DNA of 64,000 bases from an uncultured Spirochaetota bacterium (GTDB lineage Bacteria > Spirochaetota > Brevinematia > Brevinematales > JAOACQ01). The stretch is taken from NCBI GenBank assembly GCA_963783575.1, contig CAWAOD010000010.1, positions 1 to 64,000 on the forward strand. The letters are read 5' to 3'. Under the pieces are notes generated by a model. That model did not search any database. It saw nothing but the letters and a program-made list of their open reading frames with translations, and was not told where the DNA came from. The position numbers and the translations under genes are program-made. Positions within the stretch are counted from its first letter, which is position 1. Each line of letters begins with the position of its first letter. This document shows, one piece after another, positions 1 to 55,968 of the stretch.

Positions 1-3000
1 CGACTGAAACGCGGAATCCAGCATCGATGGATGAAGTTTGTATTCCACTGCATTCCCCAACACTACATCCGGCATCTTTAGCCTTGCCAGCGCTTCCCCT
101 TCCCCAACATACAGCGCCTCGATCCCGCGATGACCAGGGCCGTATTCTATCCCTTTTGTTTTGAACGCATCATAACATTCTTCCGGCGATAACACTCTCT
201 CCCATTTCCTTTCCTGCTTACCCTTTATATCTATCTTGCTTTCCTCCTGCACTTCTACTATCTCCGCTATCCCCTGGCTGTGCACAACCGTCTCCCCTTC
301 CACGCCCTCGCTATACACTTCGTATGCTATCACGCCGCCTTCTTTGGGGATTAACCCGATATTCACCTTCACCGGTTCTATACCCGCTTCCACCGGCCTC
401 GACCATACCACATTCCTTATCCTTATCCCTGTTTTACTCTCTTTTTCAACTCCACCCGCTTTCTCTACCGCAGCCCTTGCCATCTCAAGGTATGCCGCTC
501 CCGGTAATATCTTCCTTCCATTAATCTTATGGTCGGCAAGAAAGAACTCTTCCCCTGTAAATATACTGCTGTATCTCTGTTCCATTAAATCCGATGTGTT
601 TTCATGCAATAACGGATGAACATACCTTAAGGCTGTGCTTCCCTTATTCCTTTCTCCGCATTTCTTTATCCAATACTTCTCCCCCGCAAACGGATAGCCC
701 GGAAGGCTTATCTTCCCCGGCTTCTTTCCCTCATACAGCCTATTCCATCATATCCACTCCCTTTACCCAGACTTCCAATAGCTTCCCGTATTTCTTCCTC
801 TTGATCCATTTCTCTATCGCTTCCCTCATTTCTTCATCTATTGTAAATAAAGACATTTCATTCTTATCACGCTTCACACGCCCGGAATATATCTCGTTAT
901 TCTTTTCTTCGCTCCTTAAATACCCCGCCATCCTTTCTTTCAACTCCTCCACCGTACCCGCTGTGAACCCCAGTCTCTCTTCCATTTCTTCCCGCCCTAT
1001 CTGCAGGGTGTACGCTATCTCAGCCAGTTTCACGTCCCCATACCCCTCCGCTTCTATCGCCTTCAGAAGGCTTTCCGCCTTTTCCTTCAATCTTGCCTTA
1101 TCTTTTGCTGACAATACTATGACTGCCGGCTTCACTGCCCTCGACTCTACCGCTTCACCAATATATTCCTCTATCACGATATGCGCGTTCGACCCTCCCG
1201 CTCCTAATGATGATATTCCCGCAATCCTGGGGGTTTCGCTCTTCCATTCCGACAACTCCCTCTGCACTACAAACGGGGTTTCACCAAAATCTATATTCGG
1301 ATTTAATTCCTCGCAATGAAGGCTCGGCACCAGTTTACGGTGCTTCATCTGCAGCAGAACCTTCGCTACAGCAGCTATCCCTGCCGCGCTTTCACAATGT
1401 CCTATGTTCGACTTTACAGACCCTATCGCGCAGAATTGCCTGTCCTCTGTATATGCCGGAACGCCTTCGTCAATCCCGCTATCTCTATCGGGTCCCCCAG
1501 CGATGTCCCGGTCCCATGCGCCTCGATGTAACTAATCGACCTCGCATTCACCCCTGCCTTTTCTATCGCTTCCCGTATCAATTCTCCCTGCGCCGCCGGA
1601 TTCGGCACCGTATACCCACTCGTCTTTCCTCCGGAATTCAGCATGCTTCCCCCTGATCACTCCATAAATATGGTCTCCATCCGCTGCCGCCTTGGACAAC
1701 CGTTTCAGAAGTACAGCTCCAACTCCTTCTCCGGGGACATACCCATCCCCACCCTTGCCGAAACTCTCGCATATTCCCTTGCTCGACGCGAACTTTCCCT
1801 GCGACAGCAGCAGGTATTTATTCGGATGGATCGATACGTTTACTCCCCCCGCTATCGCCGCACCGCATTCCTCCTTCTCTATACTCTGGCAGGCCAGATG
1901 AATCGCCGTTAACGACGATGAGCACATCGTATCCACTGCCATACTGGGGCCATCGAAATTAAAGATATATGAGACCCGGTTCGCTACCAATGACGGATTT
2001 CCTCCCAGCGCAAAATTCCTTCCCCTGGCCTGTTCCTGCGCCGCATACAATTGATATTCCTCATACATTACTCCGGCATATACTCCCACTCTTCCGCCCA
2101 GCCCTCCGTTTTCATCCTTCCCCAGCTTTTCACCCGTATATCCAGCATCCTCCAACGTTTGATACGCGCATTCTAAAAACAGCCTCTCCTGCGGATCCAT
2201 AAACTCCGCTTCCCTAGGCGATATATTAAAAAACAACGGATCGAATTCTTCCACTCCATCTAAGAATCCACCCCATTTACTGTAGGTTTTGCCAGCTTTG
2301 TTTCTATCTTCATCATAATATTCCTTCCAATCCCACCTTTCTTCCGGTATCTCCGTTATGCAGTCCTTCCCTTTCTTTAAGTTTTCCAGGTTCTTCCAAG
2401 TTCCTGGAACCCGCATACCTTCCGCTCAACCCTATGATCGCTATCTTATCCCCTTCTTCTTTCTCGGCTGTCTGTGTTTCCGCCAGATTACTCAATTGCC
2501 CGGCCGTTCTCACTGATTTTATGGATGCGTTTATGATTTCTGCTATCATCTCACCGCTTTCTGTCAAGACTACTACATCAAATGACAAGAAATCTTCCTT
2601 CCCGCTTCTTATCTTTTTAATCAGATACGCTTTTTCTGTCATTACCCGGTACAATACTATCTTTTCTATGATCAGCGGGATATATATTTTTTCATTCATC
2701 TTTTCCAGCATTCCCTGATTTACCGTTTCCGGATTGGTTAACGCATAACAGGAATTCAGCAACAGCGGATCAAAGGCCATTTCCGTCACATTCCCTTTCT
2801 TTCGCTTCCCTGTTATATCGACCCTGCCGATCAATGTGCTTTTATCATACTCATACGCGGATTCAATCGTCTGCAGCATCGCTCCGATGGTAAATCCCTT
2901 GATCGTATGATAACTCTTCTCGATGATCTCCCTTTCCAGCGGTTTAGACTCTTTGATGATCGCTTCTATATCTATTTCTTCCGGATCCGCACTTACAGGC

Positions 3001-4524
3001 CCGATATATTCTCCCGTACACCCGGTTTTCTCTTCCCCGGATCCATTGTATCCTTTCACATCATACGTCGTTTCAAATCCGGTTTGCTTTTCCACACCAT
3101 TGAATTTGACCCGTATCTGTACCGCTTCATTTTTATTCAACCCTACAGGCCCTCCGACAAACTGGATATTTCTCATCTCCACAGGATAGCTCTCCGGATT
3201 GTTCCGAAGATAACTCTCCAGCACAAGGCAGGGGTGGGTTATTCCCATTAACGCAGGCCTGCCGTACACCCGATGGTCCCTCAGATACGGCTCATTTTCA
3301 TAAAATTCATAGCTCCCCGCGGTTAATACAGCTTCCACTCTCTCCGGTATCTTTCCCTTTTCCGAATAGCCCCAATCTCCCTCCTTCTCCGCTCTTCCTT
3401 CCAGATATCCGCCCAATTCTTTCAGATTGCTGTATTCAAACAATAAACTTGGGCTTAACGACATTTGAAATCCGTCCTCTATATCCTTTACCAATCCCAA
3501 TAACTGCGATGATTCCAGACCTAATTCAAAAAAGCCCCTTTCCATTGCCGCCTGGTCAAATTCCCTATGGATATATTTTGAAAATATCTTCTTTAACGTT
3601 TCCTCTATTGCAGCTCGTCCCAAACTTTCCGTATTGTTTCTTTCACCCTGCTCCGTTTCTTTCAACTCTTTTCCTTCCCTCAAATCACTTCTCTCCGGGA
3701 GTTTTTGCCCCGGATGCCTGACCCGCTTCGCTGTCAGCCCCTTCAACAACGCTGCTTGTTTCCCTTCCGCATTGAAAAATTCCATGTCCACTGTAAAAAT
3801 ATCATTAATATGACGGATAGACGCCCTCTTTATCCTGACATAGCAGCTATCCTGCAATGGTTCTCTTCCGTAAAACGATTCGTAGGATAACGGCAGGAAC
3901 AGTTTGCCTTTGATCTGCTCCGGATTGGACCGGCTTACGATCGCCATAGACGCCATTCCCGCTCCGTCGATGAGGGCCGGGTGAAATAGAAATTCCTCAC
4001 CCCCTTTCCGGTATGCATGGTTTACCCTGATTTCCGACATACTCTCCGTTTCCGTTTCATAGATGATGCCTTCGGCTTTGATTATTTCCCTGTGGATTAA
4101 ACCCGACTTCCTGGCTTCCGCATACAGTGCCTCGATATCGGTTTTCTGCAGTACATCCTGCTTCATTGCCTCTATATCTATCTTCTCTTCTAACCGCGGC
4201 GCTTCCTTATGCAATTCCACCGTGATATACAGTTCCCCTTTTTTATCTTCTTCCCCGTCTTCCACTTTAATCGCCCAATATTTCTGCTTCTTCTCAAATG
4301 TGATCTTTATCCTTATCCCTTTTTCTTTCCCGACTATTAATGGATTGAATATCATCAGTTTCTTTAAACTATACTCCCTGTATTCCAGCTTCAATCCGTC
4401 TTTCACCAGCTGAAAAAGCATATCAATATAGGCTAACCCCGGCAGCAAGCTCTTCCCTTGGACCTCATGGTTCTTGATGATCGGCTGTTCTATGGTTAAG
4501 TCAGAGTAAAATATTTCTATTCAT
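1..4524 (-). CDS. Trans-AT PKS subunit 3 (3'-truncated by window edge): DH-ACP-DH'-KS-DH..., interrupted by small indels
   Basis: ORFs 2313..4448, 1532..2416, 1423..1644, 740..1348 and an uncalled open frame <1..~750 join into one PKS when frameshifts at ~4519, ~2390, ~1651, ~1456 and ~751 are bridged. Motifs: DH NHEVQGKSLLPG / HPALIDG; ACP GLESS; DH-like DHRVYGRPALMG / DPLLLNS; KS DTMCSSS, EAHGTGT, KSNIGHCE; DH DHKINGRKILPG / HPSMLDS. Probable start ATG at 4524 overlaps the upstream TGA, after GGGGGA. Confidence 0.88.
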
Positions 4525-7500
4525 TGTGTTATCCCCCAAATATTTTGATAAGTTGATGTAAAACTTCTCGTACTCTCCTTATTCTGCTTTTTTCTGAATT
4601 TATTAATGAAATCGCTCATATCAACTTCTTTATTATTAAATGGTGTTTTGCTCTTTTCCGGCAGAGTTTTCTGCGTTAATTCAAATCTTTTTTTATTCAT
4701 AACTGGTACAGGGAGAGAGAAATAGCGCTGTACATAATCATCACCCGCAGTAAATTCTTCCATCACCACATGGCAATTCGTCCCTCCATCGGGAAAGGAA
4801 TTCTGTGCAGTCGCGCGTTTCTTTCCGGACTCTACCTTCCATTCGGCCGCCTCCCGGTTAAACTCAATCCGCGACCCTTTGAAATCATAATACAAAGGCG
4901 TTTCTTCAGCCGATAAAAACGGAGGGATCTGTTTATGATACAGGCTTAACGCACAGCGTATAAACCCCGCAAGCCCTGATGTTAATAATACGTGCCCGAT
5001 ATTCGGCTTTATTGAACCTATCGAGCATCTGCCGATTCCTTTGCCGCTTAATTGATATACTTCCGACAACGCTTTTATTTCTACTGAATCTATCAACGGA
5101 GACCCACCCCCGTTTACCTCGATATAACCTATATCCTCTATCCTCTTCCCGCTCCTTTCCAACGCTTCTCCTATTACCTGCTTCTGCGCGCTCAAGTTCG
5201 GCGAGCCCGGCCCTAACGTCCTTCCGTCATTGTTTACTGCTATCGCTTTTATGACTCCGTAAATTTTATTCCCGTCCCTCACTGCCTCTTTCAACCGTTT
5301 CAACACCACCATCCCGGCCCCTTCGCCCAATACCTCTCCCACGGACCGCCTGTCAAATATATGGAATTCCCCGTTTTTGCTCAATATATTCCTCGCCTCA
5401 AACATTTCATGTGCCAGCGGGTTCATAATCAAACTCACTGATCCAACCATCGCCATTTCTATCCGCCCCGATTTTAATAAATCAGACGCCATCGACATCG
5501 CGGCCAATCCCGACGAACACGCCGTATCTACCACCATACTCGGCCCCGTCAAATTGAAAATCCTCGATAGATTCGATGCCAGATAGTTCTGCCCAAATCC
5601 CAGTATCGGATTGCTCGACTGCAAGGCTTCCTTAACATTCCCGCCGTACTGCAGCCTCCCCCCAATATACACCCCTACCTTTTTCCCGGATAAATCCCTT
5701 TTCTCATATCCCGCGTCATAGGCCGCTTTCAAACCCTCTTCCAAGATGATTCTTGCCTGCGGATCCATAATCGCCGCATCATTGTCCTTGAGTTCAAATA
5801 TCTCCGGGTCAAACATCTCTATATCTTCTATCCAGCCACCATAATCCGCACGGTTTTCCCTTCTCTGCCACCGGCTTTCCGGTACCGGTCTTATCGCCTT
5901 TTTCCCTTCGATTAACAGCTTCCAATATCCTTCTTTGTCCGGCGATCCAGGTAAACGGCAGGATATCCCTACCACCGCTATTTCTTCCCCTTCAATCGTT
6001 TTTACTCCCTCATTCTCTTCCTCTTTACTTTCGCTCTCTTTCTCATCCGGATATTCTTCTGTCACCTGGCCTTGCCCCATCCCCAATATTTCCTCTATTT
6101 CCTTTTCATGGTTCGCTATAAAATATTTCGTTAGATCATTGATCGTACGGTTTTCTATAAAGATTGACGGGGATACCTCCGTCTTTATTTCCTTTTGCAA
6201 TGTCTGCGCCAATTGCGCTATTACTATCGAATCCACTCCATATTCATCAAACGGCTTATCTTCATCTACTTGTTCCTGCGTTAATTTCAATTCCCTCTTA
6301 ATGATCCCTTTCAACCATTCCCTGATGGATCCGGGCAAGTTTGCCGTTTTTACCGCCGCTTTTTTTACAACTGTTTTGGCTCTTTCAGTTCCCCTTTTAT
6401 TCAACCTCTGAATTTCCCGTTTCAGCAATCCCTCTGTTTCAAATTCTTCCGGCATCACGATACATGCCATCATGACTGTATCCGGTATTCTCCTTATCAC
6501 ATCTATATAATCCAGCCCTTCCTTCGTTGTCAATACCTCTATGCCTGTGTTGTTATATGCCGGGCTCTGCTTCCCGCCTGCTCCCGCCGCCATCCCTGAC
6601 TCTCCCCACGACGGCCACTGCACCGACTTCATGTAACTCTTCCCCTCTCCCGCTTCTTTCTCAGCATAGTAATCCATATAGCTGTTCGCCATCGCGTAAT
6701 CGCTTTGTCCTACCGATAACACCGGGACGACGCTCGATATCGATGAGAATAATAGATAGAATGATAACGGCTCCTTCTCAAGCGCTTTATGTAGCAGCAC
6801 CGTCCCTTTTATCTTCGGTTCACAGACCTCTTCTATGTCCTTCATTTCTTTTTTAATAAATGCCGGGTCCTTGCTTACCAGCCCCGCACAATGATAGACC
6901 CCCTTTATCTTCCAGGCTTTCAGGCGGATTTCTTCCGCCATCTTTTTCAATCCTTCTTCGTCCGTTAAATCCGTATGGTAATAAAGTACGTTTACCCCTT
7001 TATCCCTATATCCCCGCAGCCTCTTTATCTTTTCCCTGATCTCAGGCCTTTCCCCGCTTTCCAGGATTTTCTTCCATTCTTCTTCTCCGGGTAATTCTTC
7101 CCTGCCCATCAACACCACGTTTTTTATCCCCCTGCCCACCAGCCTCCCAGCTATCTCCGCCCCTATCCCCCGTGTTCCTCCCGTTATGACCACCGCTTCA
7201 TTGCTTTCATATTTCTCTTCCATCTGCGGCACTGGCATCCATTCTTCCGCCTTCTCCATTGTCATCCGCGGCTCATATCTTTCTCCCTTCCGGTAACAGC
7301 TTTCCGTTAAATTCTCCCTTCCCGCGTTTTCAAACTCCTTTTCTACCTGCCTTATCATTTCATCTTCTTTTTCCAACCCGGCGTCACTGTCCATCACCGA
7401 CGATTCTATCTGCCGATACTCCGCTCCCAGCATCCGGTACAATCCAGCCGTCCTCGCTCCCTGCATCGTCGTTGTATTGATCTGAAAATTGTTTAATCTA

Positions 7501-10500
7501 TATGTCACCTGCAATAGCTTATATCCTTCTTCCCTGTCTTTTTCAATTATTTCCTGCAGGAATTTTATCTTCCCCTTTTCTATTTCCAGCGATTCTTCAT
7601 ATTCTTTATCCAATGCCGTGATATCAATTACTCCCAGCAATTTGCCCTTCCCAACCTTTCTCTTTATCTCCTCGTAAAGCCTTTCCCCCCTGCTTACCGT
7701 ATAAAAATCGGCGCTGATTACCCCTCCTTTTTTCACATCCCCATGCACTGCCGGAATGACCTCTATCCCTTTCCTTGCCTTAAATATTTTCATCGCCGTT
7801 TTCAATGTCGTTTCCGTTCCTAAAATAACGACTGTCCCTTTCAGCTTAGCGTCATTTTCCTTTAACTCTTTCCTCTCCCATTCTTTCTTCAGTATTACTT
7901 TTTCCCTCTCCGCTGTTTCTCTCTCCTCTTTCTTTTCATTCTGTCCTATCCAGTACCTTTCCTTCGCAAACGGATATGAAGGCAGGCTCACCCGGTACGG
8001 CTTATATCCTTCATACAATCTATCCCAATCTATCCTCAAGCCTTTTACCCAAGCTTCCGCTATTTTATTCAACCGCCCTCCACGGAGCCACTCCTCCATT
8101 AATGACTTGATGTCTTCCTCGTTATCTAATATCTTTATCCCTTCCCTGCTATTCTTTACTTCTCCTACCTTTATTTCCGCGCTATATACCCCAGATAGAT
8201 ATTGTCCAAAGCCGCTTATCGCGGTTTCCCTCGTTTCCGCCCAGAATGCCAGCCTGTATTCCATCTCTTCCCTTCCCGTCTGCAGTGTATACGCCACATC
8301 CGCCAGATTTATCCCTTCTTGCTTCTCCAGCCGCTTTTTTATACTTTCGGCATACCTTCTTAACTGCTCCTCCCTTTTAGCCGACAGCACGATTAATACT
8401 TTTTCTAACTCCGCAGGATTTTTCCTTGTCTCCTCTTTGTACTCTTCTATCACGATATGTGCGTTCGTTCCGCTGTATCCAAAGGCGCTCACGCCTGCCC
8501 GTCGCGGTCTTTCTTTTCCGCTTTCCCAGTCCTTTAACTCCGTATTAACATAAAACGGCGATTCCTCGAAATTGAAGTGCTCGTTCGGCGTTTTATAATT
8601 CAGCGTCGGTACAAGCTTTTCATGTTCATGCACAACAATACTTTTTGTATACTCGCTATCCCGGATGCCGCCGATGTATGCCCGATATTGCTTTTTACCG
8701 ACCCTATCGCACAATATTTCTTCCGGTTTGTTCTTTCTCTGTACACCGTAGACAATGCCTCCAATTCAATCGGGTCCCCCAGCTTTGTCCCGGTCCCATG
8801 CATCTCTACATACCCGATGCTTTCCGGCTCTATATGATATTTGTTATAGATTTCCCTTTCCAGCTCTATCTGGCTGTTTACGCTCGGCGCCGTGATCCCG
8901 TTCGTTTTTCCATCCTGGTTGATCCCTCCCCCTATGATCACTCCGTAAATATGGTCCCGGTCCCTCTCCGCGTCCGTCAGCCGCTTCAATACTATCGCGC
9001 CGACTCCCTCTCCGGGCACAAATCCGTTCGCTCCGTTATCAAAGGTTTTACATTGCCCTTCCGGCGACAGCATCCCCGCAGCGCACATCCCTATATATGT
9101 CTGCGGCGTGAGGTATAACGTAACTCCCCCTATCAGCGCCATATCGATTTCATGATCCGCTAATGCCTGCATCCCTAAATACCCCGCAACCAATGACGAC
9201 GAACACGCTGTGTCTATCGGTATCGCAGGCCCTTTCAGGTTGAGAAAATACGGAATCCGCGCCGCTCCTATTGAATAGCTGTTCCCGGTCGCATTCGTTA
9301 CTACCCTCTGGTTTTGATACAGCATCATTCCATACTCGTTACTCATTATTCCTAAATAGACTCCACACTTTTGATCACTTAACATCCGCGGACTATACCC
9401 GGCGTCTTCAAACGCTTTATACCCCTCTTGTATGAATATCCGGTGCTGCGGATCCATCCCTTCCGCTTCCACCGGTGATATATTAAAAAATAAGGGATCG
9501 AAATATTCTATCTCTTCCAGCATTCCCAGCCATTTACAATATATTTTCCCCTCCATATACTGCCTTGGATCCGGATGGTAATACTTTTTCATTTCCCATC
9601 TTTTGCCCGGTATTTCCCTGATCGAATTCTTACCTCCCTCTAAATTCTCCCAATACTGCTCTATGTCCTCCGCCCCAGGATACCTCCCCGACATCCCTAT
9701 GACCGCTATCCCTTCTCTTTCCCCTCCTTTGCTATGCCTCCGTTCCTCCTGCCTCTGCCCTATTGCAATTCGGCTCATTCCTACTCGGCGGGATTTTAAA
9801 ATATTACTTCTATCTTTATTATAAAAAAACAAATTAACATTCTCTGATAAGGATATTGCTGGTTTTGATTGTGCCCTCTCACTTTTAGAGATGTTTGTTT
9901 TATCTTGAAATGAGCTTAATGAAATTTCTTCCGGTTTATTTAAAGAAATATTTTGAAAGCTTTGATCATCTGATGAAAAATCCAGGGATATAGGTGAAGG
10001 AATATTGAATATAGAATTATCCTTGGTTTCTGCAGTATTTTTATTTAATTCATTTCCTAAATAAATTGCAAACTCACGAACACTGGGATAATCATAAACC
10101 TTTGTCGCGCTAATTTGAGTTCCGTATTTCTTATTAATTGTCTTTATCCATTCCACGGCTATGATCGAATCCATTCCCATTTCTATAAATTTCTTGTCCG
10201 GATCGATATCGCTTCGATCCATATATAATGTATCTGCCAAACTTCCTGTCAAATATTCCAGTAAAGTTTCATCTGTTATTACGTTTTGTGTATTGATTGC
10301 TGCTGTATTACTATTGAGTACCAGCAAATTCATGTTTATTCTATTGCCATGTCCCTTAATCTTTATGTAAAGTTTACCTTCTTCATCACATAAATCTATA
10401 TTAAATTTATACTCTTCCTCATCTTTTTTATATTTTAATAAGGCCCACATAGTATGGGAAAATCTGCCTATAATATCCAGCCTATCAATGAAAAATGGCT

Positions 10501-20554: not shown

Positions 20555-20705
20555 AAACGATCTCCCTTATAACCATATCATAATGATTCAATATTATTTC
20601 CATGTATTTCTTCAAAAATGCTAAGTTCATTCAATAACTGGTCAGCGCTTTGAATATCTATACTGCCATTCTTTACCAAAGAAAGCAAGGAATTTATGGA
20701 CATTT
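20475..20705 (-). other. Complementary short helical docking motifs across a split module (KS-DH | KR-MT-ACP)
   Basis: Subunit 1 ends MSINSLLSLVKNGSIDIQSADQLLNEL; subunit 2 starts MNSQEILLALQKGKISLEEAKDEL. Both fit the LxxLxxGxIxxxxA helix-turn-helix pattern of trans-AT four-helix-bundle docking domains. Confidence 0.75.
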
Positions 20706-32853: not shown

Positions 32854-32868
32854 ATACAATTTCTCCAA

Positions 32869-36118: not shown

Positions 36119-36871
36119 TTATTCCTCCATAATCCCTTTTGAAATTTCAGCAAAAACAGGAATTGATTTTGATTTTGGAAAAACATCATAAAGCGGTTTT
36201 CCAAGAAGCTGAGAATCTTTTATCTTACTGTCTTGCGGAATAGTATATAATTTATAATTCATTTCATTAAACAACTCGCTCACTATATCATGCGAACTCA
36301 TTGAAGAATTTTTATTATTGATGATAACCTTCTCATGTTTCACATTTCGCCTTTCATATTTATTCAGATTTTTAATATCAATTGAAAGAGCGGATAAACC
36401 GGAAATACCATATTTTTCTGGTATAAATGGGCTTATAATTTCATCCAAAGTGATCGCTATCCCCTTCTCAAGAATTCCGAAATTTGGGGATAAATCGTAA
36501 AACACATACTCAAAACCTTGTTTCTCGAGGTCCTCATTTAATTCCTCAAAGAAATACCGTTGTTTATTAATCACTATATCCGAATCTTCCCTCAGTTCAG
36601 AGCCTTTTCCCTCTGTTTTTATAAAAAATAAATACTCATTATAACGGGATAAAGACTCCGCCGGACTCGCCTTATCATTAATGATATCCAGTAGCTGGTA
36701 TTGGCTGATATCCGCGCCTTTATATAGGCCATCCGTCGCATTCCCTTGAGGGTCAGCGTCAATTAAAACCGTTTTCTTTTTAAATTTTGTCGCAATGTAA
36801 TGTGCGACGGTCACTGTAAGGCTTGTTTTACCTACCCCGCCTTTTTTACAGAAGAATGAGATTTTTTTCAT
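36119..36871 (-). CDS. parA: ParA/MinD-family ATPase
   Basis: Deviant Walker [19 protein letters not shown], Walker B VFYDLSP, 250 aa, RBS AAGGAG. Confidence 0.92.
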
Positions 36872-36912: not shown

Positions 36913-37263
36913 TTATTTTTTAACATAAGTCACCAGAACCGGTAATACTTTTACGACATAGGGTAGAACAGAAATTGCGTAAACGCAAACGCTTAATGAC
37001 GTCAAGCTGAAAAGTATCCAAGAAACAGTTTTCTGGCTGATTTTTTTCGCTTCTTTCTGCTTATTGAACTGTCTTAAACTAAGAAAAACACCGATCACAA
37101 TTTCTATTGCAAAAGTGAGCATTAATAATATGGTCAATAGAAACTTTTCAGAAGTATACCCAATATATACAAACAAAAACATATAGATAGGCCAGGGAAA
37201 CAATAAAATATACAAAATAGTGCTTCCAACTACTACTGAGTTTAAAAATGATTTCATATTCAA
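36913..37263 (-). CDS. Small hypothetical membrane protein (about 3 TM helices)
   Basis: Three hydrophobic stretches with a Lys-rich loop; RBS GGAGG; co-oriented between the radical SAM gene and parA. Confidence 0.7.
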   Translation of the reverse strand: MNMKSFLNSVVVGSTILYILLFPWPIYMFLFVYIGYTSEKFLLTILLMLTFAIEIVIGVFLSLRQFNKQKEAKKISQKTVSWILFSLTSLSVCVYAISVLPYVVKVLPVLVTYVKK

Positions 37264-47749: not shown

Positions 47750-47825
47750 CCGAGTCTCCTTCACAAAATTATTTATAAACTACCCCATCTTCTTATGTTA
47801 TTAAAAAACGGATTATACTATATCT

Positions 47826-50800
47826 CTAGTTTTTATTTAAACTAATATATTCTGATATATCTGCGCTGTTTTGATGGTTCATTAAGAAATCAAGCCCTAT
47901 ATCTATTTGAGCAGTTTCTCTAATTTTTGTTACAAGCTGTATTGCCAGTAAAGAATGGCCTCCTAAATCAAAAAAACTATCCTTTCTTCCGATTGGTTGA
48001 ATATTTAAAAGCTTTTCCATCATAGCTATGATCTTTTTTTCATTTTCAGATATTGGAGCCTCATATGGTGTTGCCAATTCCGGACGCGGTTTTAATTTAT
48101 CGCTTTCATGCGAATTACTATCGACCTGCCCGGGATCCATTTTTATCCATATATCATAACGTTTGTAGAGGTCTGAACAGGAAATAATCATAGGATTAAA
48201 CTGCGCTTCAACACCTGACAATTTTTCCAAACATATATTTCCCTCATAGGTAGTTATCAAGCCTTCCAATATTCTTTCCGAACCTAATTGAAAACCGGCA
48301 GCCATGTTTTCTTCTACCAGGTCTTCAAACCATTCTGATTCAAGGGAATCCCAATTGAATACGGCCCAGGGCTTTTGTAAATAATTGTTTGCATCGAGGG
48401 CAGCACTTACCGCGATAGAATCTGCCGAACAGTAGGCGAAGAAACCCGGACCAGCCAGGACTGTACTTATAGATGTCCATAAATATCTGAAATCCAGCTC
48501 CTTATTCTTAAAAATCTCATTTATGATAACAAATGATCCTCCGATGGAAGAGAGATTATAATGGCATAATTTTTTTATCATATCAGCAGGATAAGAAAGA
48601 GTAGCTATTCTGCCAGCCGCGTATCCTCCGGCGGCATGTACAACTCCGTTAATAGGGCCAAACTGTTTTTCAAGATATTCTATCTTCTTTTCAAGTTTAT
48701 CTTTATCGTTGATAATATCCAGCTCATCTATAAATTCCGCACCTAAAGCTTTTAGTTTTTTTACTGTTTTAATCTTCAAGCTTTTAATTTCATTCGGACC
48801 ATGATTTTTCAGCCAATCTTCCCAATCTTTTTCTTTCGGAAGAGTAGGATCATCCATTATAATCAGCTGAGCTTGATATTTCCCAATAATATATTCATAT
48901 ATTGCGGGTATCCCGCCGGTTAAACCCCCAAAAGCAAAATAAACGCCTTTTTGCTTAAATACACTATTTTGTTTTATATTTTCATTCAATTTAATCTGGT
49001 TAAAATTCAGAACCCAGCGTTTATTACTACGATAGGAACAAACAATATCTTTATTGTCCGATAGAATTTCATTTACAACAAGATTAACCCTGTCTTTATA
49101 GGCTAGAAATTCTTTATTTATTTCTATTAACCGATTCCGGAAATTCGGATATTCCTGCTGAATTACTTTCAACGCGCTTACAATGGTTGATTTTTCAGGA
49201 TATACTTTTTCATTTCCATAAATATCAAAAACATTATTTACAAAAGAAAATAATTGAATGTTTCTTGTGATATTATGCGTATTAACTGCTTTAATTAAAT
49301 ATAAAAATGAATATAGTCCAAATTTCTGAAAGGATAAAATAGAATCTATTTGTTGAACAAAATTCTCATTTTTTAAATCAAATAAACTAAAAAAATGTAA
49401 GATTGAATCCGGTATATTATGATTCAATTCCAAGTCATTAAATAATAATAGATAGGATTCCGGGTTTTCCAAATCAATTTCGTAAGTATTGCTACTGGTT
49501 TTCAAGTATTCCTTACCGGCATATACATAAAAGGCCTTTTCTCCCCTATTTTTTAATTCCTCTCCAATAGAATACCCAAAGTTTAGATGGTCTACAAATA
49601 TCAGTCTCTTCAATACGGTTTTATTATCAGATTGGATAATAAAAGGAAGGGCGGTTTGATTCCATTTATTATAATAAAACCATTCATCCATATTATTAAT
49701 TTTATGAGCAATTGAATTGTCCTCTTGAATTTTGTCTTTATTTTTTGATTCAATCCAATAATAATCTTTTTCCAACGGATAAGTCGGAAGGCTTACCCGT
49801 TTCCTTTTTTCATCTTTATTAATATTTTTCCAATCGGCAATTCCTTCTTTAAACCAATCTCTCAGCTTATTGTTTGGTTCATTGCCATTGTTTACAATTT
49901 TTTCTTGGTAGTTATGGTTGTCAATCATTTTTTCCGGGTTCTTGCCTTTTAATATATCAATGGCATTTTCAATAGAATTTGTATAAAATGCAAGCTTGTT
50001 TTTAAAATCACGCCTTCCAACCTGCAGGGTATATGCAATATCCTGTACAGAAGAATTTCTGTGTTCTTCCATATATTTCAGTAAATTGTTTTTAACTTCA
50101 TTCAATTGTTTATCATTTTTTGCAGACAAAATAATAACCGATTCTTTTTCCGTTTTTTCTCCAACACTATCATCACAATATTCTTCCAAAATGATATGGG
50201 CATTGGTTCCTCCGACCCCAAGAGAACTCACTCCCATTCTTAACGGAGAAGATTTTGACTGCATATCACAAAGTTCCGTATTCACATAAAACGGCGAATT
50301 CTCGAAATTTATATTTTTATTTCCCTTTTTAAAATGAAGGCTGGCCGGAACCTGTTTTTTTTCTAAGGCTAAAACAGTTTTTATAAAACTAGCTATCCCT
50401 GCTGCCGCTCCCAGGTGCCCAAAGTTAGTTTTTACCGAACCTAATCCGCAAAATCTATCCTTCGTTGTAAATTCCCTGAAAGCCTTTGTTAAAGCTGCGA
50501 CTTCGATCGGATCGCCAATTTTTGTACCGGTGCCATGGGCTTCAATATAATCTATTGTTTCAGGAGACACTCCGGAAGAAGCATAAGCCTGTACAATCAC
50601 TTCAGATTGGCCTTCAATACTCGGCGCTGTATAACCTGCTTTGTTTGAACCATCATTATTTAATGCGGACCCTTTAATCACAGCCCTGATATGGTCCCCA
50701 TCCGCAACAGCATCGCTCAATCTCTTTAAAAGGACTACACCGCTCCCACTGCCCCATATAGTCCCATCCGAATCATCATCAAAAGCCCTGCAATAACCAT

Positions 50801-51491
50801 CGCGGGATAAAATACTATCTCTTTCATAAAAATATCCAACATTTTCAGGAATTATTATTGCTGCTCCTCCGGCTAAAACCATATCCGCATCTCCAAAAAG
50901 AAGCGCCTGCCTGGCCAGATGAATCGCAACCAAACTGGATGAGCATGCGGTGTTTACGTTAATGCTTGGGCCGGTCAAATTTAAAAGATAAGATGTTTGA
51001 GTAGGGAGACCGTCTTTTTCATTGCCTGTGATAATTTGAAGAGGTCCTACCATATTGACTATATCCGGATTATTATAAAGATTTTTGATATAAAAGTTGA
51101 TACCCGCGCTGCCGAATACCCCAATCTTACCATTATACTTTTCCGGGACATACCCGGCGTCTTCCAGCGCCTGCCAGCAGTTTTCTATAAACAACCTGCG
51201 TTGTGGGTCTAAAATACTTGCTTCGCTTGGATTCACATTAAAAAAAGAAGCATCGAAATATTTACTTCTGGAAAAATAAGGTGAAGCTTTGACATAATTC
51301 GGATGGTTAATCATTTCTTTATCAATGCCCCGATTCAATAACTCTTCATCAGAATAAAGCTTAACCGAGCAGATACCTTTAGACAGGTTATTCCAATACT
51401 CATCTATGTTATCCGCTTCCGGAAAATAACAAGCCATTCCAATGACGGCAATATCTAAAGGATTTATTTCATTCACAATTAATACCCTCAC
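47826..51491 (-). CDS. AT-less PKS module of NRPS-hybrid type: KS - degenerate KR - carrier
   Basis: KS NTACSSS, EAHGTGT, KTNFGHL; no AT GHSxG; KR-like region GGLTGG, GVVHAAG, YCSAD; carrier FFDLGGHSLL. True start may be GTG at 51476. Confidence 0.9.
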   Translation of the reverse strand: MRVLIVNEINPLDIAVIGMACYFPEADNIDEYWNNLSKGICSVKLYSDEELLNRGIDKEMINHPNYVKASPYFSRSKYFDASFFNVNPSEASILDPQRRLFIENCWQALEDAGYVPEKYNGKIGVFGSAGINFYIKNLYNNPDIVNMVGPLQIITGNEKDGLPTQTSYLLNLTGPSINVNTACSSSLVAIHLARQALLFGDADMVLAGGAAIIIPENVGYFYERDSILSRDGYCRAFDDDSDGTIWGSGSGVVLLKRLSDAVADGDHIRAVIKGSALNNDGSNKAGYTAPSIEGQSEVIVQAYASSGVSPETIDYIEAHGTGTKIGDPIEVAALTKAFREFTTKDRFCGLGSVKTNFGHLGAAAGIASFIKTVLALEKKQVPASLHFKKGNKNINFENSPFYVNTELCDMQSKSSPLRMGVSSLGVGGTNAHIILEEYCDDSVGEKTEKESVIILSAKNDKQLNEVKNNLLKYMEEHRNSSVQDIAYTLQVGRRDFKNKLAFYTNSIENAIDILKGKNPEKMIDNHNYQEKIVNNGNEPNNKLRDWFKEGIADWKNINKDEKRKRVSLPTYPLEKDYYWIESKNKDKIQEDNSIAHKINNMDEWFYYNKWNQTALPFIIQSDNKTVLKRLIFVDHLNFGYSIGEELKNRGEKAFYVYAGKEYLKTSSNTYEIDLENPESYLLLFNDLELNHNIPDSILHFFSLFDLKNENFVQQIDSILSFQKFGLYSFLYLIKAVNTHNITRNIQLFSFVNNVFDIYGNEKVYPEKSTIVSALKVIQQEYPNFRNRLIEINKEFLAYKDRVNLVVNEILSDNKDIVCSYRSNKRWVLNFNQIKLNENIKQNSVFKQKGVYFAFGGLTGGIPAIYEYIIGKYQAQLIIMDDPTLPKEKDWEDWLKNHGPNEIKSLKIKTVKKLKALGAEFIDELDIINDKDKLEKKIEYLEKQFGPINGVVHAAGGYAAGRIATLSYPADMIKKLCHYNLSSIGGSFVIINEIFKNKELDFRYLWTSISTVLAGPGFFAYCSADSIAVSAALDANNYLQKPWAVFNWDSLESEWFEDLVEENMAAGFQLGSERILEGLITTYEGNICLEKLSGVEAQFNPMIISCSDLYKRYDIWIKMDPGQVDSNSHESDKLKPRPELATPYEAPISENEKKIIAMMEKLLNIQPIGRKDSFFDLGGHSLLAIQLVTKIRETAQIDIGLDFLMNHQNSADISEYISLNKN

Positions 51492-51537: not shown

Positions 51538-52239
51538 TTACAAAACACACAAAGCCGCTATAAAATCGTATGAATAACCATAGCTGGAAGCCAATTTTTT
51601 AATTTTTAATTTACGTTCATCTAAAACTTTTATGAATTCGTTTTTATTTAAAAGCTCTCTGTAACCCAAATTCAATTCCGGATTTATTTCAAAATACGCC
51701 CTGGTTAACGGCGTATCTAAAGGCACAATAATCAACAGCTTCCCATCCGGTTTCATGAATTTTATATGGCAGTTGATCACCTCTTTTTTATCCGAAAAAT
51801 GCTCTATTAAACCAAAACTGCATACAATATCAAATCTATCTTTGATATCCAGTTGAAATAAATCCCGGATGATATATTTAATATTCGTTTTTTCCTTATC
51901 ATTCAATTTATCAAATTGATGATAAGACTCCTCGTTTTTATCCACCAGAACTCCTGACCCTTTATAAAGGCTTAAAACGCTCCGGGTAAGAAAACCGGAC
52001 CCTGCCCCTAGCTCTAAAACAGAAAGAGATACAATCTGTTCACCGGCAAATACTTCTTTTAAAACCTTATATAAAACCCCGCCCATTTTAAAATTATCTT
52101 CTTTGAGAAACAGTCTTACCTTTTGATAGATTTCTTCTATATTGATTTGAGCTGAAAATTCACGCTGCCTATTCTCGTTAAAATACTGTGGCCAATTAAA
52201 TCCGTCTTGCAATTCCAAAAAGTCTTTGGTGATATACAT
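51538..52239 (-). CDS. Class I SAM-dependent methyltransferase
   Basis: VLELGAGSG, FDIVCSFGLIEHF, KPDGKLLIIVP. Confidence 0.85.
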   Translation of the reverse strand: MYITKDFLELQDGFNWPQYFNENRQREFSAQINIEEIYQKVRLFLKEDNFKMGGVLYKVLKEVFAGEQIVSLSVLELGAGSGFLTRSVLSLYKGSGVLVDKNEESYHQFDKLNDKEKTNIKYIIRDLFQLDIKDRFDIVCSFGLIEHFSDKKEVINCHIKFMKPDGKLLIIVPLDTPLTRAYFEINPELNLGYRELLNKNEFIKVLDERKLKIKKLASSYGYSYDFIAALCVL

Positions 52240-52259: not shown

Positions 52260-53234
52260 TTAAAACAAATCATGAATTAACTGTTTCGCCAGGAGAAACC
52301 GGATAATTTTTTCTCTATCTTCTTTATCATCAAACGAATAACATCTTATCTTTTTTGTGTTTTCGTTAAACAACCCTTTCATAGAACTTTGCGGTCCGAT
52401 CTCAAATGCAAAAGAAACATCCTGTCTTTCAAAATAGGAAACTGCTTGCCGCCATCTCACCGGAGTTACTAATTGAACCATCAGGTTTTTCTCGATTTCA
52501 TTATGGGAATTATAGGGAAGCCCGGTTACTGTAGATACAACATCCCATTTTAAAGGATGATAAACAAACGCTGTTAATTCTTTTTTAATGTCTTCTTCGA
52601 TAAAACTCATTAAAGTACTATGAAAAGGCGCGTCAACTTTCATCGGCATCATACTAAAGGGCACAAATTCTCCGTTAACTTTTTTAACAGATTTATCTAA
52701 AGCCTTCAGGGCATTTTCATCTCCTGAAACGACGAACTGCCTGGGTGAATTATAACAGCAAATTGAGGCAAAACCTATTTGGTCATTCACTTCCTTCACT
52801 GTCTTCTCGACAATTTCCTCTGTAATGTCCAAAATTAACGCCGTCCTTCCTTTTTTTTCACTGTATGCCCTCTGCATAATCGAACCCCTTTCCCTCGCAA
52901 ACCTAACCCCATCGTAAAATGCTATTCCTCCTGCTGCGATTAAAGCAGATATTTCACCTAGGCTATGTCCGGTACCGTAGTCCGGTAAAAAACCCGTTTC
53001 TTCAGTGAGCACTTTATATAAAGCATAACTCGCGGTAACCACAGCCGGCTGGGCATTTGCCAAATGCGTCAATTCCTGCATGTCCCCATCATTGATCATT
53101 TTTTGGATGTTATATCCGAGAGAATCATTCGCTTCTTTAAAAACCTGCGCCGCCGCAGGATAATTTTTAACCATGTCTTTACACATACCAATATATTGCG
53201 CTCCCTGCCCGGGAAAAAGCATAGCGATCTTCAA
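52260..53234 (-). CDS. Discrete acyltransferase (FabD-like trans-AT)
   Basis: FPGQGAQ, AQPA, GHSLGE, ERGSIMQ, NSPRQFVVSG, APFHS, PVRW, EIGP. Confidence 0.93.
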   Translation of the reverse strand: MKIAMLFPGQGAQYIGMCKDMVKNYPAAAQVFKEANDSLGYNIQKMINDGDMQELTHLANAQPAVVTASYALYKVLTEETGFLPDYGTGHSLGEISALIAAGGIAFYDGVRFARERGSIMQRAYSEKKGRTALILDITEEIVEKTVKEVNDQIGFASICCYNSPRQFVVSGDENALKALDKSVKKVNGEFVPFSMMPMKVDAPFHSTLMSFIEEDIKKELTAFVYHPLKWDVVSTVTGLPYNSHNEIEKNLMVQLVTPVRWRQAVSYFERQDVSFAFEIGPQSSMKGLFNENTKKIRCYSFDDKEDREKIIRFLLAKQLIHDLF

Positions 53235-53235
53235 T

Positions 53236-54381
53236 TTATTTTTTCCTTATATAATATTTGTTTAACCCAAAAGCCGCAATCATTTCCTGCTGAATTTGAG
53301 ATGTTCCTTCTATAATTTCCAGTACCTTTGCCTCCCGATACAATCGCTCTACCGTATAATGGTCTGTAAAACCATTTGCTCCATATACCTGCAGCGCATC
53401 ATTAGCCACTTCAACCGCTATCTTCGAAGTAAAATACTTCGCGATATTGGTTTCCATAATATTTTCCGGATCTTTTTCTTTCCTTAACTCGCCAGCCCTC
53501 AAACAAATCGCCTTGGCCGCGTGTACTTTTGTGACAGCGTCGCCGATTATACCCCTGATCAATTGAAAAGACCTCAGTTTTTCCCCAAATTGTTCCCGGT
53601 TTCTAGAATAGGAAACCATAGCTTCCATCGCTTCTTCAGCAATCGCGGCACCGCCCCAGGCTACACTGTACCTTCCATTATCAAGCGCGGTATTGACTAC
53701 ATATTCAAAACCATTATCAATCTTACCCAGGATATTCTCTTCCGGAACTTCAACATGATTCAATTCGATCTCCGCAAGATAGGTCGCCCTTCCCGCCATC
53801 AAACCTTCGATTTGCTTTGTTTTTAAACCAATGGATTTTCTTTCAACCAGGAATGCAGTCGCTTTCCCATTATTTGCCGCTATCACAATAAACAATTCAG
53901 CAATATGCCCAAAGGTAATCCATTTTTTTGTTCCATTAATAATGAATTTGTCTCCTTTTTTTATATAGGTTGTTTTTACACTTTTTGTATTCGAACCAAC
54001 TAGAGGTTCCGACAAAGCAAATGCCGCTATCACCTCTCCTTTCACTATTAAAGGAAGCCATTTATTCTTTTGTTCCTCATTACCCCATCTTAATAAAGTT
54101 TCTCCAACCAATGAAGTGTGCACAGTTAATAGGCTTCTAGTTGCAACACATGCTTTCCCAATCTCTTTCGTAAATAATCCATAGTATACTGGATCCAAAC
54201 CTAACCCACCGTATTTCGAAGGTATAGGAGCGCCTAAATACCCGTTAGATGCCAATTTATTAATTAAACTTCTTGAAACTCCTCCATTTTTTTCAAACTC
54301 CTGAACAAACGGCCTTATTTCACAGTCAGAAAACAATTTTACTTCGTTAATAATCCTTTCTTGCCTTTCATCCTTTACCAC
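53236..54381 (-). CDS. Acyl-CoA/acyl-ACP dehydrogenase (FkbI/ZmaE-like)
   Basis: AFALSEPLVGS, INGTKKWITFG, REQFG, QVYGANG, YREAKVLEIIEGTSQIQ; adjacent to ACP and fkbH/fkbK remnants. Confidence 0.9.
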   Translation of the reverse strand: MVKDERQERIINEVKLFSDCEIRPFVQEFEKNGGVSRSLINKLASNGYLGAPIPSKYGGLGLDPVYYGLFTKEIGKACVATRSLLTVHTSLVGETLLRWGNEEQKNKWLPLIVKGEVIAAFALSEPLVGSNTKSVKTTYIKKGDKFIINGTKKWITFGHIAELFIVIAANNGKATAFLVERKSIGLKTKQIEGLMAGRATYLAEIELNHVEVPEENILGKIDNGFEYVVNTALDNGRYSVAWGGAAIAEEAMEAMVSYSRNREQFGEKLRSFQLIRGIIGDAVTKVHAAKAICLRAGELRKEKDPENIMETNIAKYFTSKIAVEVANDALQVYGANGFTDHYTVERLYREAKVLEIIEGTSQIQQEMIAAFGLNKYYIRKK

Positions 54382-54436
54382 ACTATCTCCTAATTACATG
54401 CCCAATAATACATCAATCCGATATCAATCTTCTTAC

Positions 54437-54676
54437 TTATTTCCTGTTGATTAAACTGATAATATTATTCACAGTATTAAAATTATTAATGTCCAGGTCA
54501 TCATTTTCAATTGCAATATTAAATTCTTTCTCAAGAAAATTTACTAATTTCATAGCAAATAATGAATTTACAAATCCAAGGGCAAAGAAATTATCACCAT
54601 CTGAAAATTCTATATTATCATCTGCTATAATAAAATTATTCTTAATAAATTCCCTAATTTTTTCTCTTTGTTCCAT
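54437..54676 (-). CDS. Stand-alone acyl carrier protein (FkbJ/ZmaD-like)
   Basis: 79 aa, FALGFVNSLFAMKLV motif typical of extender-unit ACPs; RBS GGAG. Confidence 0.9.
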   Translation of the reverse strand: MEQREKIREFIKNNFIIADDNIEFSDGDNFFALGFVNSLFAMKLVNFLEKEFNIAIENDDLDINNFNTVNNIISLINRK

Positions 54677-54678
54677 TT

Positions 54679-55089
54679 TTATTCTCCATTCCTAATTATA
54701 ATTTTTACTTCAATATGACTTGGAAATTCCAAATTATGAGTTAACTAATTTCCAAATATATAATTACCCTGCCCATTCGATGAAATCTCTTTAAAATTTG
54801 ATAACCGGAAGATCATATTAAAAATCAGCCCTGATTGGTCCTGATAGTTAACTCTTCCTCTCTTTTTAAATCCCCCTCCTCAGCTTCTTTAATAATAAAT
54901 TTCATATTTAAAGAAGCTAAAAAAGATTCCTTTGGGCCGACATAATTCCAATCAATTTCCGGATAAAGAAAATTCTCATGAATACCAAACTCCTTAATTC
55001 CATAGCAGTGGAGAAATCATTTTTATTGGATGGAATTTAAAATACAAATCCCAAACTACTCATTTGATTTCTTTATTTTTTTCATCCAT
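54679..55089 (-). pseudogene. Remnant of stand-alone FkbH-like (HAD-IIIC) glyceryl transferase
   Basis: Manual translation gives MDEKNKEIK*VVWDL, EFGIHENFLYPEIDWN and YVGPKESFLASLNMKFIIKEAEEGDLKREEELTIRTNQ: FkbH segments in the right order with large internal deletions, a stop and frameshifts. Confidence 0.8.
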
Positions 55090-55106
55090 AAATTTATCTG
55101 CCTAAT

Positions 55107-55222
55107 CTAATATATGTAAAATCTCTGGCCAGATTTCTCCCTAAAAGACCAGCATCCATCCCTTCCCTCAGTAAGGAACAGCATCAAAATTTGGAATCCT
55201 GATAACTTTCATAAAGAATATC
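55107..55222 (-). pseudogene. C-terminal remnant of 3-hydroxyacyl-CoA dehydrogenase (FkbK/ZmaG-like)
   Basis: Reads DILYESYQDSKF*CCSLLREGMDAGLLGR then (frameshift) SGQRFYIY*, matching the family's C-terminal ...AGLLGRKSGxGFYxY; sits directly behind an orphan GGAGGTG RBS. Confidence 0.72.
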
Positions 55223-55260
55223 ACCTCCAATTTTTAGCCGATCAGATTTTTTCGACATTA

Positions 55261-55784
55261 TCATAATTCCAAGAAAGACCGATAATTAACGCATTCCATT
55301 TTTTCTAGTATTGGTAGGCAATCGGGATTCATCCCTCCTTTTATGCTTGAAACTATTGATAATACATAATTTCCATCTTTTATATGAACGTCTTCTAAAA
55401 TCCAATGTTCACCATTTAAACTATCGTTACGAGCTTCTATCGGCTTCATATTTGGATTAGGCGATACAGAAAAGTAGTCAAAGGACATATACAACCCTTC
55501 ACCAGTTGCTTAATAAAGGCTTCTTTCCATGTTCACCAAGTATTAAACACTCTTTTTCTTTTATCAGCAGGTACTTTTAGGTATTCCTCTATTTCTTTTT
55601 TATTTGCAAACCGTTTAATATCAAAAATAAACTGATTCACCTTGCCAATTTCTTGCCTTGATAAGATGTTCAGTAATAATGGCTTGTCATGTATAACTTT
55701 ATCCATATTGAATAACCAAATATGAACATTGTCATCACTAATATGAATTCTTTTTTGATAATAATTTCTGAACACTCTTTCCAT
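55261..55784 (-). pseudogene. Sfp-type 4'-phosphopantetheinyl transferase pseudogene
   Basis: VHIW...LSRQE N-terminus joined directly to ...VFNTW*TWKEAFIK / TGEGL...FSV. The WxxKEAxxKxxGxGL motif has a TGA and a 1-nt deletion, and the central region is missing. Confidence 0.8.
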
Positions 55785-55939
55785 TTGTAATTCTACTTTT
55801 TTTATGGCATACCTATTTATAAAACAAAATACAGTGTTTAATATTTACCCAACTTTCCTGTTTCAGAGGTAAAAAAAGCAATAGAATAATTCGAGAAAGT
55901 AAGAAAGGCGGACAGATATCATTATTAACTTTTTTCATT

Positions 55940-55968
55940 ATTCTATCATTTATTAATCAATTTGTCAA
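55940..55968 (-). promoter_or_regulatory. Sigma70-type promoter for the cluster
   Basis: Minus strand TTGACA-17 nt-TAGAAT with extended -10 TG, ~155 nt upstream of the first cluster gene. Confidence 0.7.

Follow-up and report, generated by a model that had tools for sequence, protein, structure and literature searches.

What does the large biosynthetic cluster at the start of contig C10 (CAWAOD010000010.1) of this spirochaete make, and how do its parts work together? The window, that is, the whole stretch of DNA analysed, is the first 64,000 nt of that contig; C4, C9, C11 and C15 are other contigs of the same genome, which has 4.9 Mb in 18 contigs, is 89.85% complete and gives four matches above cut-off to FlaA (0 in 14 control genomes), which mark it as a spirochaete; its 16S sequence would put it close to Brevinematia. 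The cluster combines a polyketide synthase (PKS) served by acyltransferases (ATs) acting in trans with a nonribosomal peptide synthetase (NRPS). We favour, at about even chances for the reading as a whole, a system that builds two chains, a long polyketide and a short polar unit, and then joins them. It was probably acquired by the spirochaete from Bacillota.

Only the minus strand is used from about 54.7 kb to base 1, with 20 open reading frames (ORFs) of at least 100 aa and one small acyl carrier protein (ACP) gene. All genes from a sigma-70-like promoter consensus (55940..55968; TTGACA-17-TAGAAT, 11/12 matches) to base 1 share this orientation, and every cluster feature located below lies on this strand. 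The promoter is a consensus match only, one of 16 such sites against 13.9 in shuffled sequences. From the 5' end the order is ACP, acyl-ACP dehydrogenase, AT, 233-aa methyltransferase (MT), a ketosynthase-ketoreductase-thiolation protein (KS-KR-T), NRPS, a protein with thiolation, condensation (C), FkbH and second thiolation domains (T-C-FkbH-T) and a B12-dependent radical S-adenosylmethionine (SAM) enzyme; then come a membrane protein, ParA, a trans-acting enoylreductase (ER), a hydrolase, a 273-aa MT and three PKS genes. The co-orientation and the incompleteness described in an earlier note on this DNA were confirmed, the cluster being cut off at contig position 1, and each part it listed was found (T-C-FkbH-T, methylating Ser-type NRPS, AT-less KS-KR-T, radical SAM enzyme, two free MTs and trans-ER). 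Its inventory omitted the 114-aa membrane protein, ParA, the BioH-like hydrolase, three decayed genes and eight frame breaks, and its pathway lacked the Art28/Art9 start, the reductase end, the reliance on a second cluster and the ParA cassette described below.

The long chain would be built by PKS1 to PKS3. The window holds nine KS domains: one hybrid KS, seven elongating trans-AT KSs with Cys-His-His, as the earlier count of at least seven elongating modules had it, and one non-elongating KS (5987-4833) with NGGGS where HGTGT is expected. PKS1 (20578..32868), defined by domain searches and the KS tree, reads ACP-KS-DH-KR-ACP-KS-DH0-KR-ACP-KS-DH (DH, dehydratase). PKS2 (4521..20554; one frame break near 8640) reads KR-MT0-ACP-KS-DH-KR-ACP-KS-DH0-ACP(W)-KS-KR-ACP-KS0, and PKS3 (1..4515; five frame breaks, the one near 4515 being deduced) reads DH-ACP-DH*-KS-DH, with an enoyl-isomerase-like DH*, up to the contig end. 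No AT domain occurs in PKS1-3 or in the modules of C11, and a trans-acting ER, split modules and a non-elongating KS are all present, as in trans-AT systems.

The KS tree comprises 46 rows from the window, C11, C4, C9, the Bacillus thuringiensis plasmid pBT62A and bacillaene (the first C9 KS was excluded and window KS9 entered as its N-terminal half). KS3 and KS6 of the window and KS2 of C11 cluster with the BaeN KSs, i.e. those acting after reduced or shifted units; KS5 and C11 KS5 group with the KS after the methylating BaeM module (alpha-methyl acceptors). The neighbours of KS7 are KSs that follow beta-branching ACPs, and that of KS8 is the KS0 of a dehydrating bimodule. The ACP before KS7 carries a Trp flag, which we take to be a sign of beta-branching. 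The DH that follows KS3 is missing its His. PDB 4U3V (PksR) is the best match of DH*, the second DH of PKS3, in which the catalytic Asp is changed to Asn and which presumably acts as a PksR-type isomerase. The predicted chain has a hydroxyl, a branch and methyls besides saturated units; its olefins come in short runs and form no continuous polyene. Of the polyene proposed previously, the short olefin runs stand; three KSs in the group of reduced or shifted units, the beta-branch position and the hydroxyl speak against the rest. Bacillaene (B. velezensis NZ_CP083716) shares with the window the bimodule divided into KS-KR-ACP-KS0 and DH-ACP, the splits between KS-DH and KR, the KS clades and the PksR-like DH*; its start, its end and its domain string are all different.

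Where does the line continue beyond base 1? In the rest of the genome, KS searches found seven such domains where C11 starts, three where C4 ends and two where C9 starts; C11 and C4 both finish KS-ACP-reductase. The summed DNA similarity of the PKS regions is 54 kb between C10 and C11 versus 3.5 kb between C10 and C4, and purine bias is 0.65 at the C10 end, 0.66 at the C11 start and 0.58 on C4. On the basis of this similarity and bias, we read C10 into C11 as one line and C9 into C4 as a second cluster; C10 probably joins C11. The window and C11 together would provide at least 14 extensions. The module repeats of C11:1-33019 (2.6-5.4 kb) are 99.3-99.9% identical, indicating very recent duplication or an assembly artefact, so that this count may be off. 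In the C11 reductase (251 bits, cut-off 213), which lies behind an in-cis ACP, the NAD(P)H-binding and YxxxK motifs are intact, and it is likely that this enzyme releases the chain.

The start of the chain is indicated by two genes upstream of PKS1. The first encodes an Art9/BioH-like methyl esterase (33710..34491; GHSLG and terminal HDMM; 42% identity to its B. thuringiensis counterpart; one frame break near 33990), the second a putative Art28-like malonyl-ACP O-methyltransferase (32869..33690; 822 bp, 273 aa, the size of art28; 67% to its B. thuringiensis counterpart). The two ends of the MT are MNNPGSY...YGEKIM, compared with MNSSGSY...VGEKTV encoded by the art28 primers, and the hydrolase starts MGLEVI, compared with MGELEVI from the art9 primer. 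In aurantinin biosynthesis, according to PMC8302727, Art28 methylates malonyl-ACP and Art9 takes the methyl off at the end; the 13 published Art28-type clusters given there are from Firmicutes, Proteobacteria, Actinobacteria and Chloroflexi, with none from a spirochaete. Plasmid pBT62A (NZ_CP044979) holds the nearest relative on a plasmid, with genes for ER, hydrolase, MT and a PKS beginning with an ACP that are arranged as in the window and are 65, 42, 67 and 50% identical; its first KS is 70% identical to the first KS of PKS1 (tree support 100/100). Judged by sequence, the 822-bp MT, the hydrolase and the N-terminal ACP very probably constitute an aurantinin-type methyl-ester start, which would make spirochaetes the fifth phylum with on-line methyl esterification. 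The MT of B. thuringiensis sits alone in a singleton cluster, with no accession link to an assayed Art28 homologue.

Aurantinin thus shares with the window the 822-bp O-methyltransferase, the BioH-like esterase and the N-terminal ACP on the first trans-AT PKS; the window differs by its reductase end, FkbH module, N-methyl-Ser NRPS, ParA cassette and spirochaete host. The pBT62A cluster shares, in addition to the ER-hydrolase-MT-ACP-KS order, a Ser adenylation (A) domain with the same code and an AT-less KS-KR-T (39%), but has another module string and its own AT-AT-ER and beta-branch cassette, and lacks FkbH, radical SAM enzyme, reductase and ParA. This uncharacterised Art28-type trans-AT cluster (NZ_CP044979 292431-365223) ends KS-ACP-C-A(Ser)-T plus KS-KR-T, with no release domain found in it. 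Elsewhere, a 401-aa protein of genome G291 (L147:17216-18421), encoded next to an NRPS-PKS, matches the Art28-like MT at 43%, and genome G196 (L151) has a trans-AT PKS with AT-AT-ER.

The polar unit would be made by the genes at the other side of the cluster. The AT-less KS-KR-T (47826..51491) has its KS in the aminoacyl-acceptor group (support 100/99), with KSs that come after NRPS modules; the protein is 39% identical over its full length to the B. thuringiensis plasmid protein and 55% over 474 aa to one from L099. The latter belongs to three short orthologous loci from metagenomes, L098-L100, which probably represent one organism. The NRPS (42721..47764; one frame break near 45470) consists of a half-C, an A(Ser) domain with a backbone N-methyltransferase inserted between a2 and a3, T and a terminal C. 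Its A domain is 51-73% identical to annotated ZmaJ and has ten identical code residues, at code positions and with a Ser specificity that we assume. The insert has all five type V Mb(a2-a3) motifs (GGWxSxY, VLEIGCASG, YxGTDLS, NSVIQxFPGxNYL and ELxxYRY), which according to PMC8341866 characterize the backbone N-methyltransferases of family 4 (A2-Mb-A3) interrupted A domains. The terminal C is divergent and keeps His-x-x-x-Asp, like 21 of 21 aligned homologues. For the T-C end of the NRPS, no relative above 32% was found among 50% representatives, where close orthologues could sit inside its own cluster.

The T-C-FkbH-T protein (38888..42649; TIGR01686, 283 bits, cut-off 147) is predicted to load and esterify glycerate. 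It has four full-length orthologues (50-58%) among 159 matches, with the carrier Ser, HHxxxD and DxDxT conserved; the others cover at most 45% among the matches listed. The best orthologue is from a 'Spirochaetales bacterium', and no full-length match was present in 40 relatives. The radical SAM enzyme (37278..38849) was recognized by family matches and has an intact CxxxCxxC; it is missing at the same place in L098 and L100 and had no match at 1e-30 in 400 phylum genomes. In atlas searches, this enzyme and the 233-aa MT returned generic families only.

Three known systems offer precedents for this part. According to PMC10099666, corramycin has FAAL-ACP-C-HAD-T (FAAL, fatty acyl-AMP ligase), the radical SAM enzyme ComJ is proposed to C-methylate glycerate, and the vioprolide starter is likened to the same arrangement. 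The window resembles both in having T-C-FkbH-T (ACP-C-HAD-T, with intact motifs) beside a B12 radical SAM enzyme; it differs in having no FAAL and in that the protein stands alone without a long NRPS behind it. The likeness is drawn from domain architecture. A complete C-A-T module downstream of the glycerate starter, as in vioprolide and corramycin, is absent. The zwittermicin A genes of pCH_181-a, whose labels other than zmaJ we assign from the presumed gene order, share the Ser A domain, the AT-less KS-KR-T, an N-terminal half-C as in the gene labelled ZmaB, and the ACP (54%) and dehydrogenase (51%). They differ from the window in that here FkbH and the 3-hydroxyacyl dehydrogenase are remnants, the AT is only 30% identical, and Ser is N-methylated on the NRPS rather than oxidised on a free ACP. 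The resemblance to zwittermicin and vioprolide suggested in the earlier note is borne out by these identities and by the T-C-HAD-T and radical SAM pair; the AT, at 29% to BaeC, is unlike PksE/PksC. In zeamine, according to PMC5811116, a reductase-released chain is joined to an NRPS-PKS product by a C domain. Zeamine and fabclavine have in common with the window a reductase-released long chain (here through the C10-C11 link that we infer), a short NRPS-PKS product and a joining C domain; in the window, the line is a modular trans-AT PKS without a polyunsaturated fatty acid synthase and the C is terminal on the NRPS. Since no aminotransferase was found in the stretches scanned, in which it also differs from zeamine and fabclavine, an ester is the likelier bond at the joining step. 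The order and chemistry of joining are proposed tentatively, at somewhat below even chances.

The favoured route would run as follows. For the long chain, malonyl on the N-terminal ACP of PKS1 would be O-methylated by the Art28-like enzyme, and 14 or more extensions would follow. The trans-ER would saturate part of the chain, which would also bear a hydroxyl, one beta-branch position, alpha-methyl groups and short runs of olefins. The terminal reductase would free an aldehyde or alcohol of C31 or longer, and the Art9-like esterase would later unmask the acid end. For the polar unit, N-methyl-Ser on the NRPS would be extended once by the AT-less KS-KR-T with hydroxy- or methoxymalonyl; FkbH would load glycerate, perhaps C-methylated by the B12 enzyme, for acylation by the C domain. 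The terminal C of the NRPS would attach this unit to the long chain in the manner of zeamine, though the bond is probably an ester. The second cluster, on C4, would supply malonyl-AT, free FkbH, dehydrogenase and HMGS (hydroxymethylglutaryl-CoA synthase). With its methyl-masked start and reductive end, its glycerate ester module and its N-methyl-serine, the cluster predicts a long two-ended amphiphile, of which we found no description.

Several observations weigh against this route. Neither the T-C-FkbH-T protein nor the cluster contains the FAAL known from vioprolide and corramycin, which leaves the first T with no evident acyl donor; the N-terminal C of the NRPS is a half domain only (Pfam positions 187-456), and the radical SAM enzyme and Ser NRPS are not at these positions in L098 and L099. 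The SAM motif is degenerate in the in-line MT of PKS2 (GARFGD in place of GAGTGG), though the following KS groups with alpha-methyl acceptors. The KS clades are read from two reference clusters and from bacillaene chemistry as we presume it to be. The sole full-length enoyl-CoA hydratase (ECH) is of the dehydratase type; the decarboxylating type is an isolated 61-aa fragment (C15:79895-80080), 59% identical to that of B. thuringiensis and remote from any PKS, and the beta-branch may therefore be incomplete or lost. The comparison with Art28 was made through the primer-encoded ends and the length (822 bp each). No sequence overlap was found between the ends of C10 and C11, nor between any two contig ends. 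Finally, three 5' genes are truly decayed, and four of the eight frame breaks lie in the last 2.5 kb, more than the background predicts (P 0.0003).

The missing donor of the first T would be provided if the cluster formed one linear line instead, in which the last KS0 passes the chain to that T, an ester with glycerate is made, KS-KR-T extends it, N-methyl-Ser caps it and the reductase is a side exit, glycerate replacing the serine of the B. thuringiensis relative. In pBT62A, the PKS is indeed followed by C-A(Ser)-T and this in turn by the orthologous KS-KR-T, and in L099 KS-KR-T, a type II thioesterase and T-C-FkbH-T adjoin with no NRPS between. With the motifs of the C11 reductase intact after an in-cis ACP, and the hybrid KS grouping with aminoacyl acceptors, we regard this linear order as rather improbable.

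Does the cluster still make a product at all? At its 5' end are a decayed 4'-phosphopantetheinyl transferase (PPTase; 55261..55784; weak HetI match, E 3e-4, in pieces over several frames), a 3-hydroxyacyl-CoA dehydrogenase remnant of FkbK/ZmaG type (55110..55222; containing a stop, and 66% identical over 35 aa to the complete copy on C4) and a free FkbH remnant (54700..55089; interrupted by stops and large internal deletions, its four pieces being 43-67% identical to the complete FkbH of C4). These are genuine remnants. They are followed by a free ACP of hydroxy/methoxymalonyl type (54437..54676; nearest to the first zwittermicin ACP, with 51% to the second over a shorter stretch), an acyl-ACP dehydrogenase (53236..54381; Pfam match; 51% versus 39% to the first and second zwittermicin dehydrogenases), a stand-alone AT (52260..53234; GHSLG and PFHS motifs) and a free class I MT of 233 aa (51538..52239), with generic family matches only. 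The AT is 38-41% identical to ATs beside AT-less NRPS-PKS hybrids; the closest match to BaeC in the genome, at 57%, is on C4. Of the zwittermicin-type cassette, the ACP and acyl-ACP dehydrogenase are present, and an intact free FkbH and 3-hydroxyacyl dehydrogenase are not in the cluster. The closeness of ACP and dehydrogenase to the first zwittermicin pair, with the FkbH remnant alongside, points to a hydroxy- or methoxymalonyl extender.

C4 carries intact FkbH and dehydrogenase, HMGS and the sole PksC-type AT, and C11 carries an Sfp-type PPTase; as they occur only elsewhere in the genome, the cluster must borrow them. The second trans-AT cluster (C9:7229-1 plus C4:322055-290822) has a reductase end, an in-line AT in one module, ER, HMGS and one ECH, as well as free FkbH, ACP, dehydrogenases, an acyl hydrolase-like AT and an IS1380 copy. 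The Sfp-type PPTase gene (C11:406814-408291) is followed by a metallo-beta-lactamase-fold-like hydrolase gene, and the same pair heads the pBT62A cluster.

A decaying relic, with no complete product made in this genome, would account for these remnants with their deletions and stops, the degenerate in-line MT, the IS1380 element just upstream, the decarboxylating ECH fragment and the four clustered breaks near base 1. As a control for the frame breaks, alignment of 229 ORFs of two relatives with the genome gave 141 usable matches over 162.5 kb. These contain 20 frame shifts, which predicts 6.7 in 54.7 kb; eight were seen (P 0.36 for at least eight). Cluster-specific decay was rejected as their cause, the genome-wide rate being of the same size. 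Conserved genes, SecA-, Smc- and PcrA-like by our own naming, also carry breaks, at an equal rate, and single-base gaps occur in five of the 12 other IS1380 copies, otherwise near-identical, and at three points of the C11 start relative to its intact repeat. The clustering near base 1 fits poor contig ends, without proving it. With two ORFs of about 4000 aa open in the cluster, and intact FkbH, dehydrogenase, malonyl-AT and Sfp-type PPTase elsewhere in the genome, we consider a relic improbable. Slightly less probable still is a single super-cluster of window and C4 (C10 to C4, C9 to C11) with the C4 tailoring genes its own and a shorter chain: C4 has exactly the window's gaps (malonyl-AT, FkbH, dehydrogenase and HMGS), the only W-flag ACP seen is in the window with none among the five C4/C9 ACPs printed, and C9 stops at about the KS-linker point where C11 starts, but the C10 modules are far closer to C11 than to C4, and the C9 end does not match the sequence before the C11 repeat (67%).

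What is ParA doing in such a cluster? Here a 114-aa hydrophobic membrane protein (36913..37257; no Pfam or NCBIfam match; 32% to its positional counterpart in L099), a ParA-family ATPase (36119..36871; KGGVGKT, DADPQG and Walker B intact) and the AT-less trans-ER (34570..36117; TIGR02814, 702 bits, cut-off 449) form a cassette. ParA has six orthologues at 65-78% identity, the next best reaching at most 40%. Both in the window and in L098, the ER gene starts one base behind the ParA stop; a small gene is placed likewise in L103 and L104. The 16-aa N-terminal tag of the ER is invariant at 12 of 16 positions in four sequences, compared with one of 50 in the linker and 265 of 434 in the core; the tag occurs in four of 74 ER matches, with the pattern drawn from the same four and the search seeded on the tag region. 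The radical SAM enzyme is lacking in L098-L100, which carry KS-KR-T, thioesterase II, T-C-FkbH-T, membrane protein, ParA and ER. The cassette is seen in the contigs of one relative and inferred in others, where orthologues co-occur, as indirect evidence: one source has T-C-FkbH-T, ParA and ER, one T-C-FkbH-T and ParA, one ParA and ER, and one T-C-FkbH-T and ER.

The distant ParAs of L103-L105 are followed by genes of 74-77 aa, not named by Pfam, with Rep3 in L105, and these look like plasmid partition pairs. The window ParA has the deviant Walker A of type Ib partition systems; a small DNA-binding partner after it and a nearby replication gene are absent, the ER following ParA here and in L098 and L100. 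The position of the ER in the slot of the ParA partner, together with its conserved tag, suggests PKS positioning. It is possible, if on balance unlikely, that a plasmid-type ParA was co-opted to organise the PKS megacomplex, with the ER tag engaging ParA and the membrane protein anchoring the unit. Alternatively, ParA may be a plasmid leftover carried along with the cluster, against which its high conservation and the missing partner gene speak. A complex prediction for the ParA dimer with ATP, Mg and ER residues 1-40 scored 0.01, the mark being 0.32. When profiles were compared, the ER alignment showed no similarity to the small partner in L103 (probability 0.2), so descent of the tag from that partner is not supported. 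One ParA column has Ser in 7/7 PKS-linked sequences and Arg in 22/26 distant homologues; we draw no loss of DNA binding from this, since the column is not aligned with the residue that we take to be the DNA-binding Arg of Soj.

Like the ParA/MinD cargo-positioning systems (McdAB, ParC-ParP and BcsQ; PMC11407121) and type Ib plasmid ParA, the window has a deviant Walker A, a next gene 1 nt after the stop and a short N-terminal tag on the next protein; it differs in that this protein is an enoylreductase. The word polyketide is absent from that review. If co-option of ParA holds, the assembly line would be a cargo of a ParA/MinD system, spreading a factory for membrane-length amphiphiles along the long spirochaete cell, and the cassette would give a genetic handle on the placement and inheritance of giant PKS complexes.

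How rare is such a cluster? The trans-ER family occurs in 4 of the 401 phylum genomes searched, two of the three others looking PfaD-like, and trans-AT systems look rare in this phylum. Scans of GTDB contigs gave no orthologous locus or, among the matches listed, only generic NRPS; viral contigs gave none, with ParAs at no more than 33%. Spirochaetes appear for enediyne KSs in PMC10308959. No published match for the whole cluster was found in the literature searched (trans-AT and spirochaetes, FkbH/glycerate, ParA and PKS positioning, Brevinema clusters), a search that most subscription journals and MIBiG fall outside. Every part has precedent; for the combination, the host and the ParA cassette, none was found in that literature.

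Some neighbouring features complete the description. Two 20-nt direct repeats (56009-56054; 90% alike, 26 nt spacing) directly upstream of the promoter consensus are a possible operator. Further upstream is an IS1380 transposase (56570-57952); the genome has 13 near-identical copies, of which one is split. At 59903-63999 of the window, a regulator with seven-transmembrane, PAS and LuxR domains precedes a large lipoprotein with immunoglobulin-like domains, and a similar pair restarts at C10:65087. Past the PKS end of C11, at 21-32 kb (C11:57770-69090), are Tn7-like genes (TnsA, TnsB, TnsC and TnsD/TniQ) and DNA methylases, with a Tn3 transposase and an N6 methylase nearer. A third cluster (C11:551485-569868) encodes two NRPSs, one of which has a TubC-type docking domain and, between its C and A domains, a ThiF domain; a cis-AT PKS and a penicillin amidase are also encoded there. 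The same-genus genome G001 has NRPS/PKS matches on its C7.

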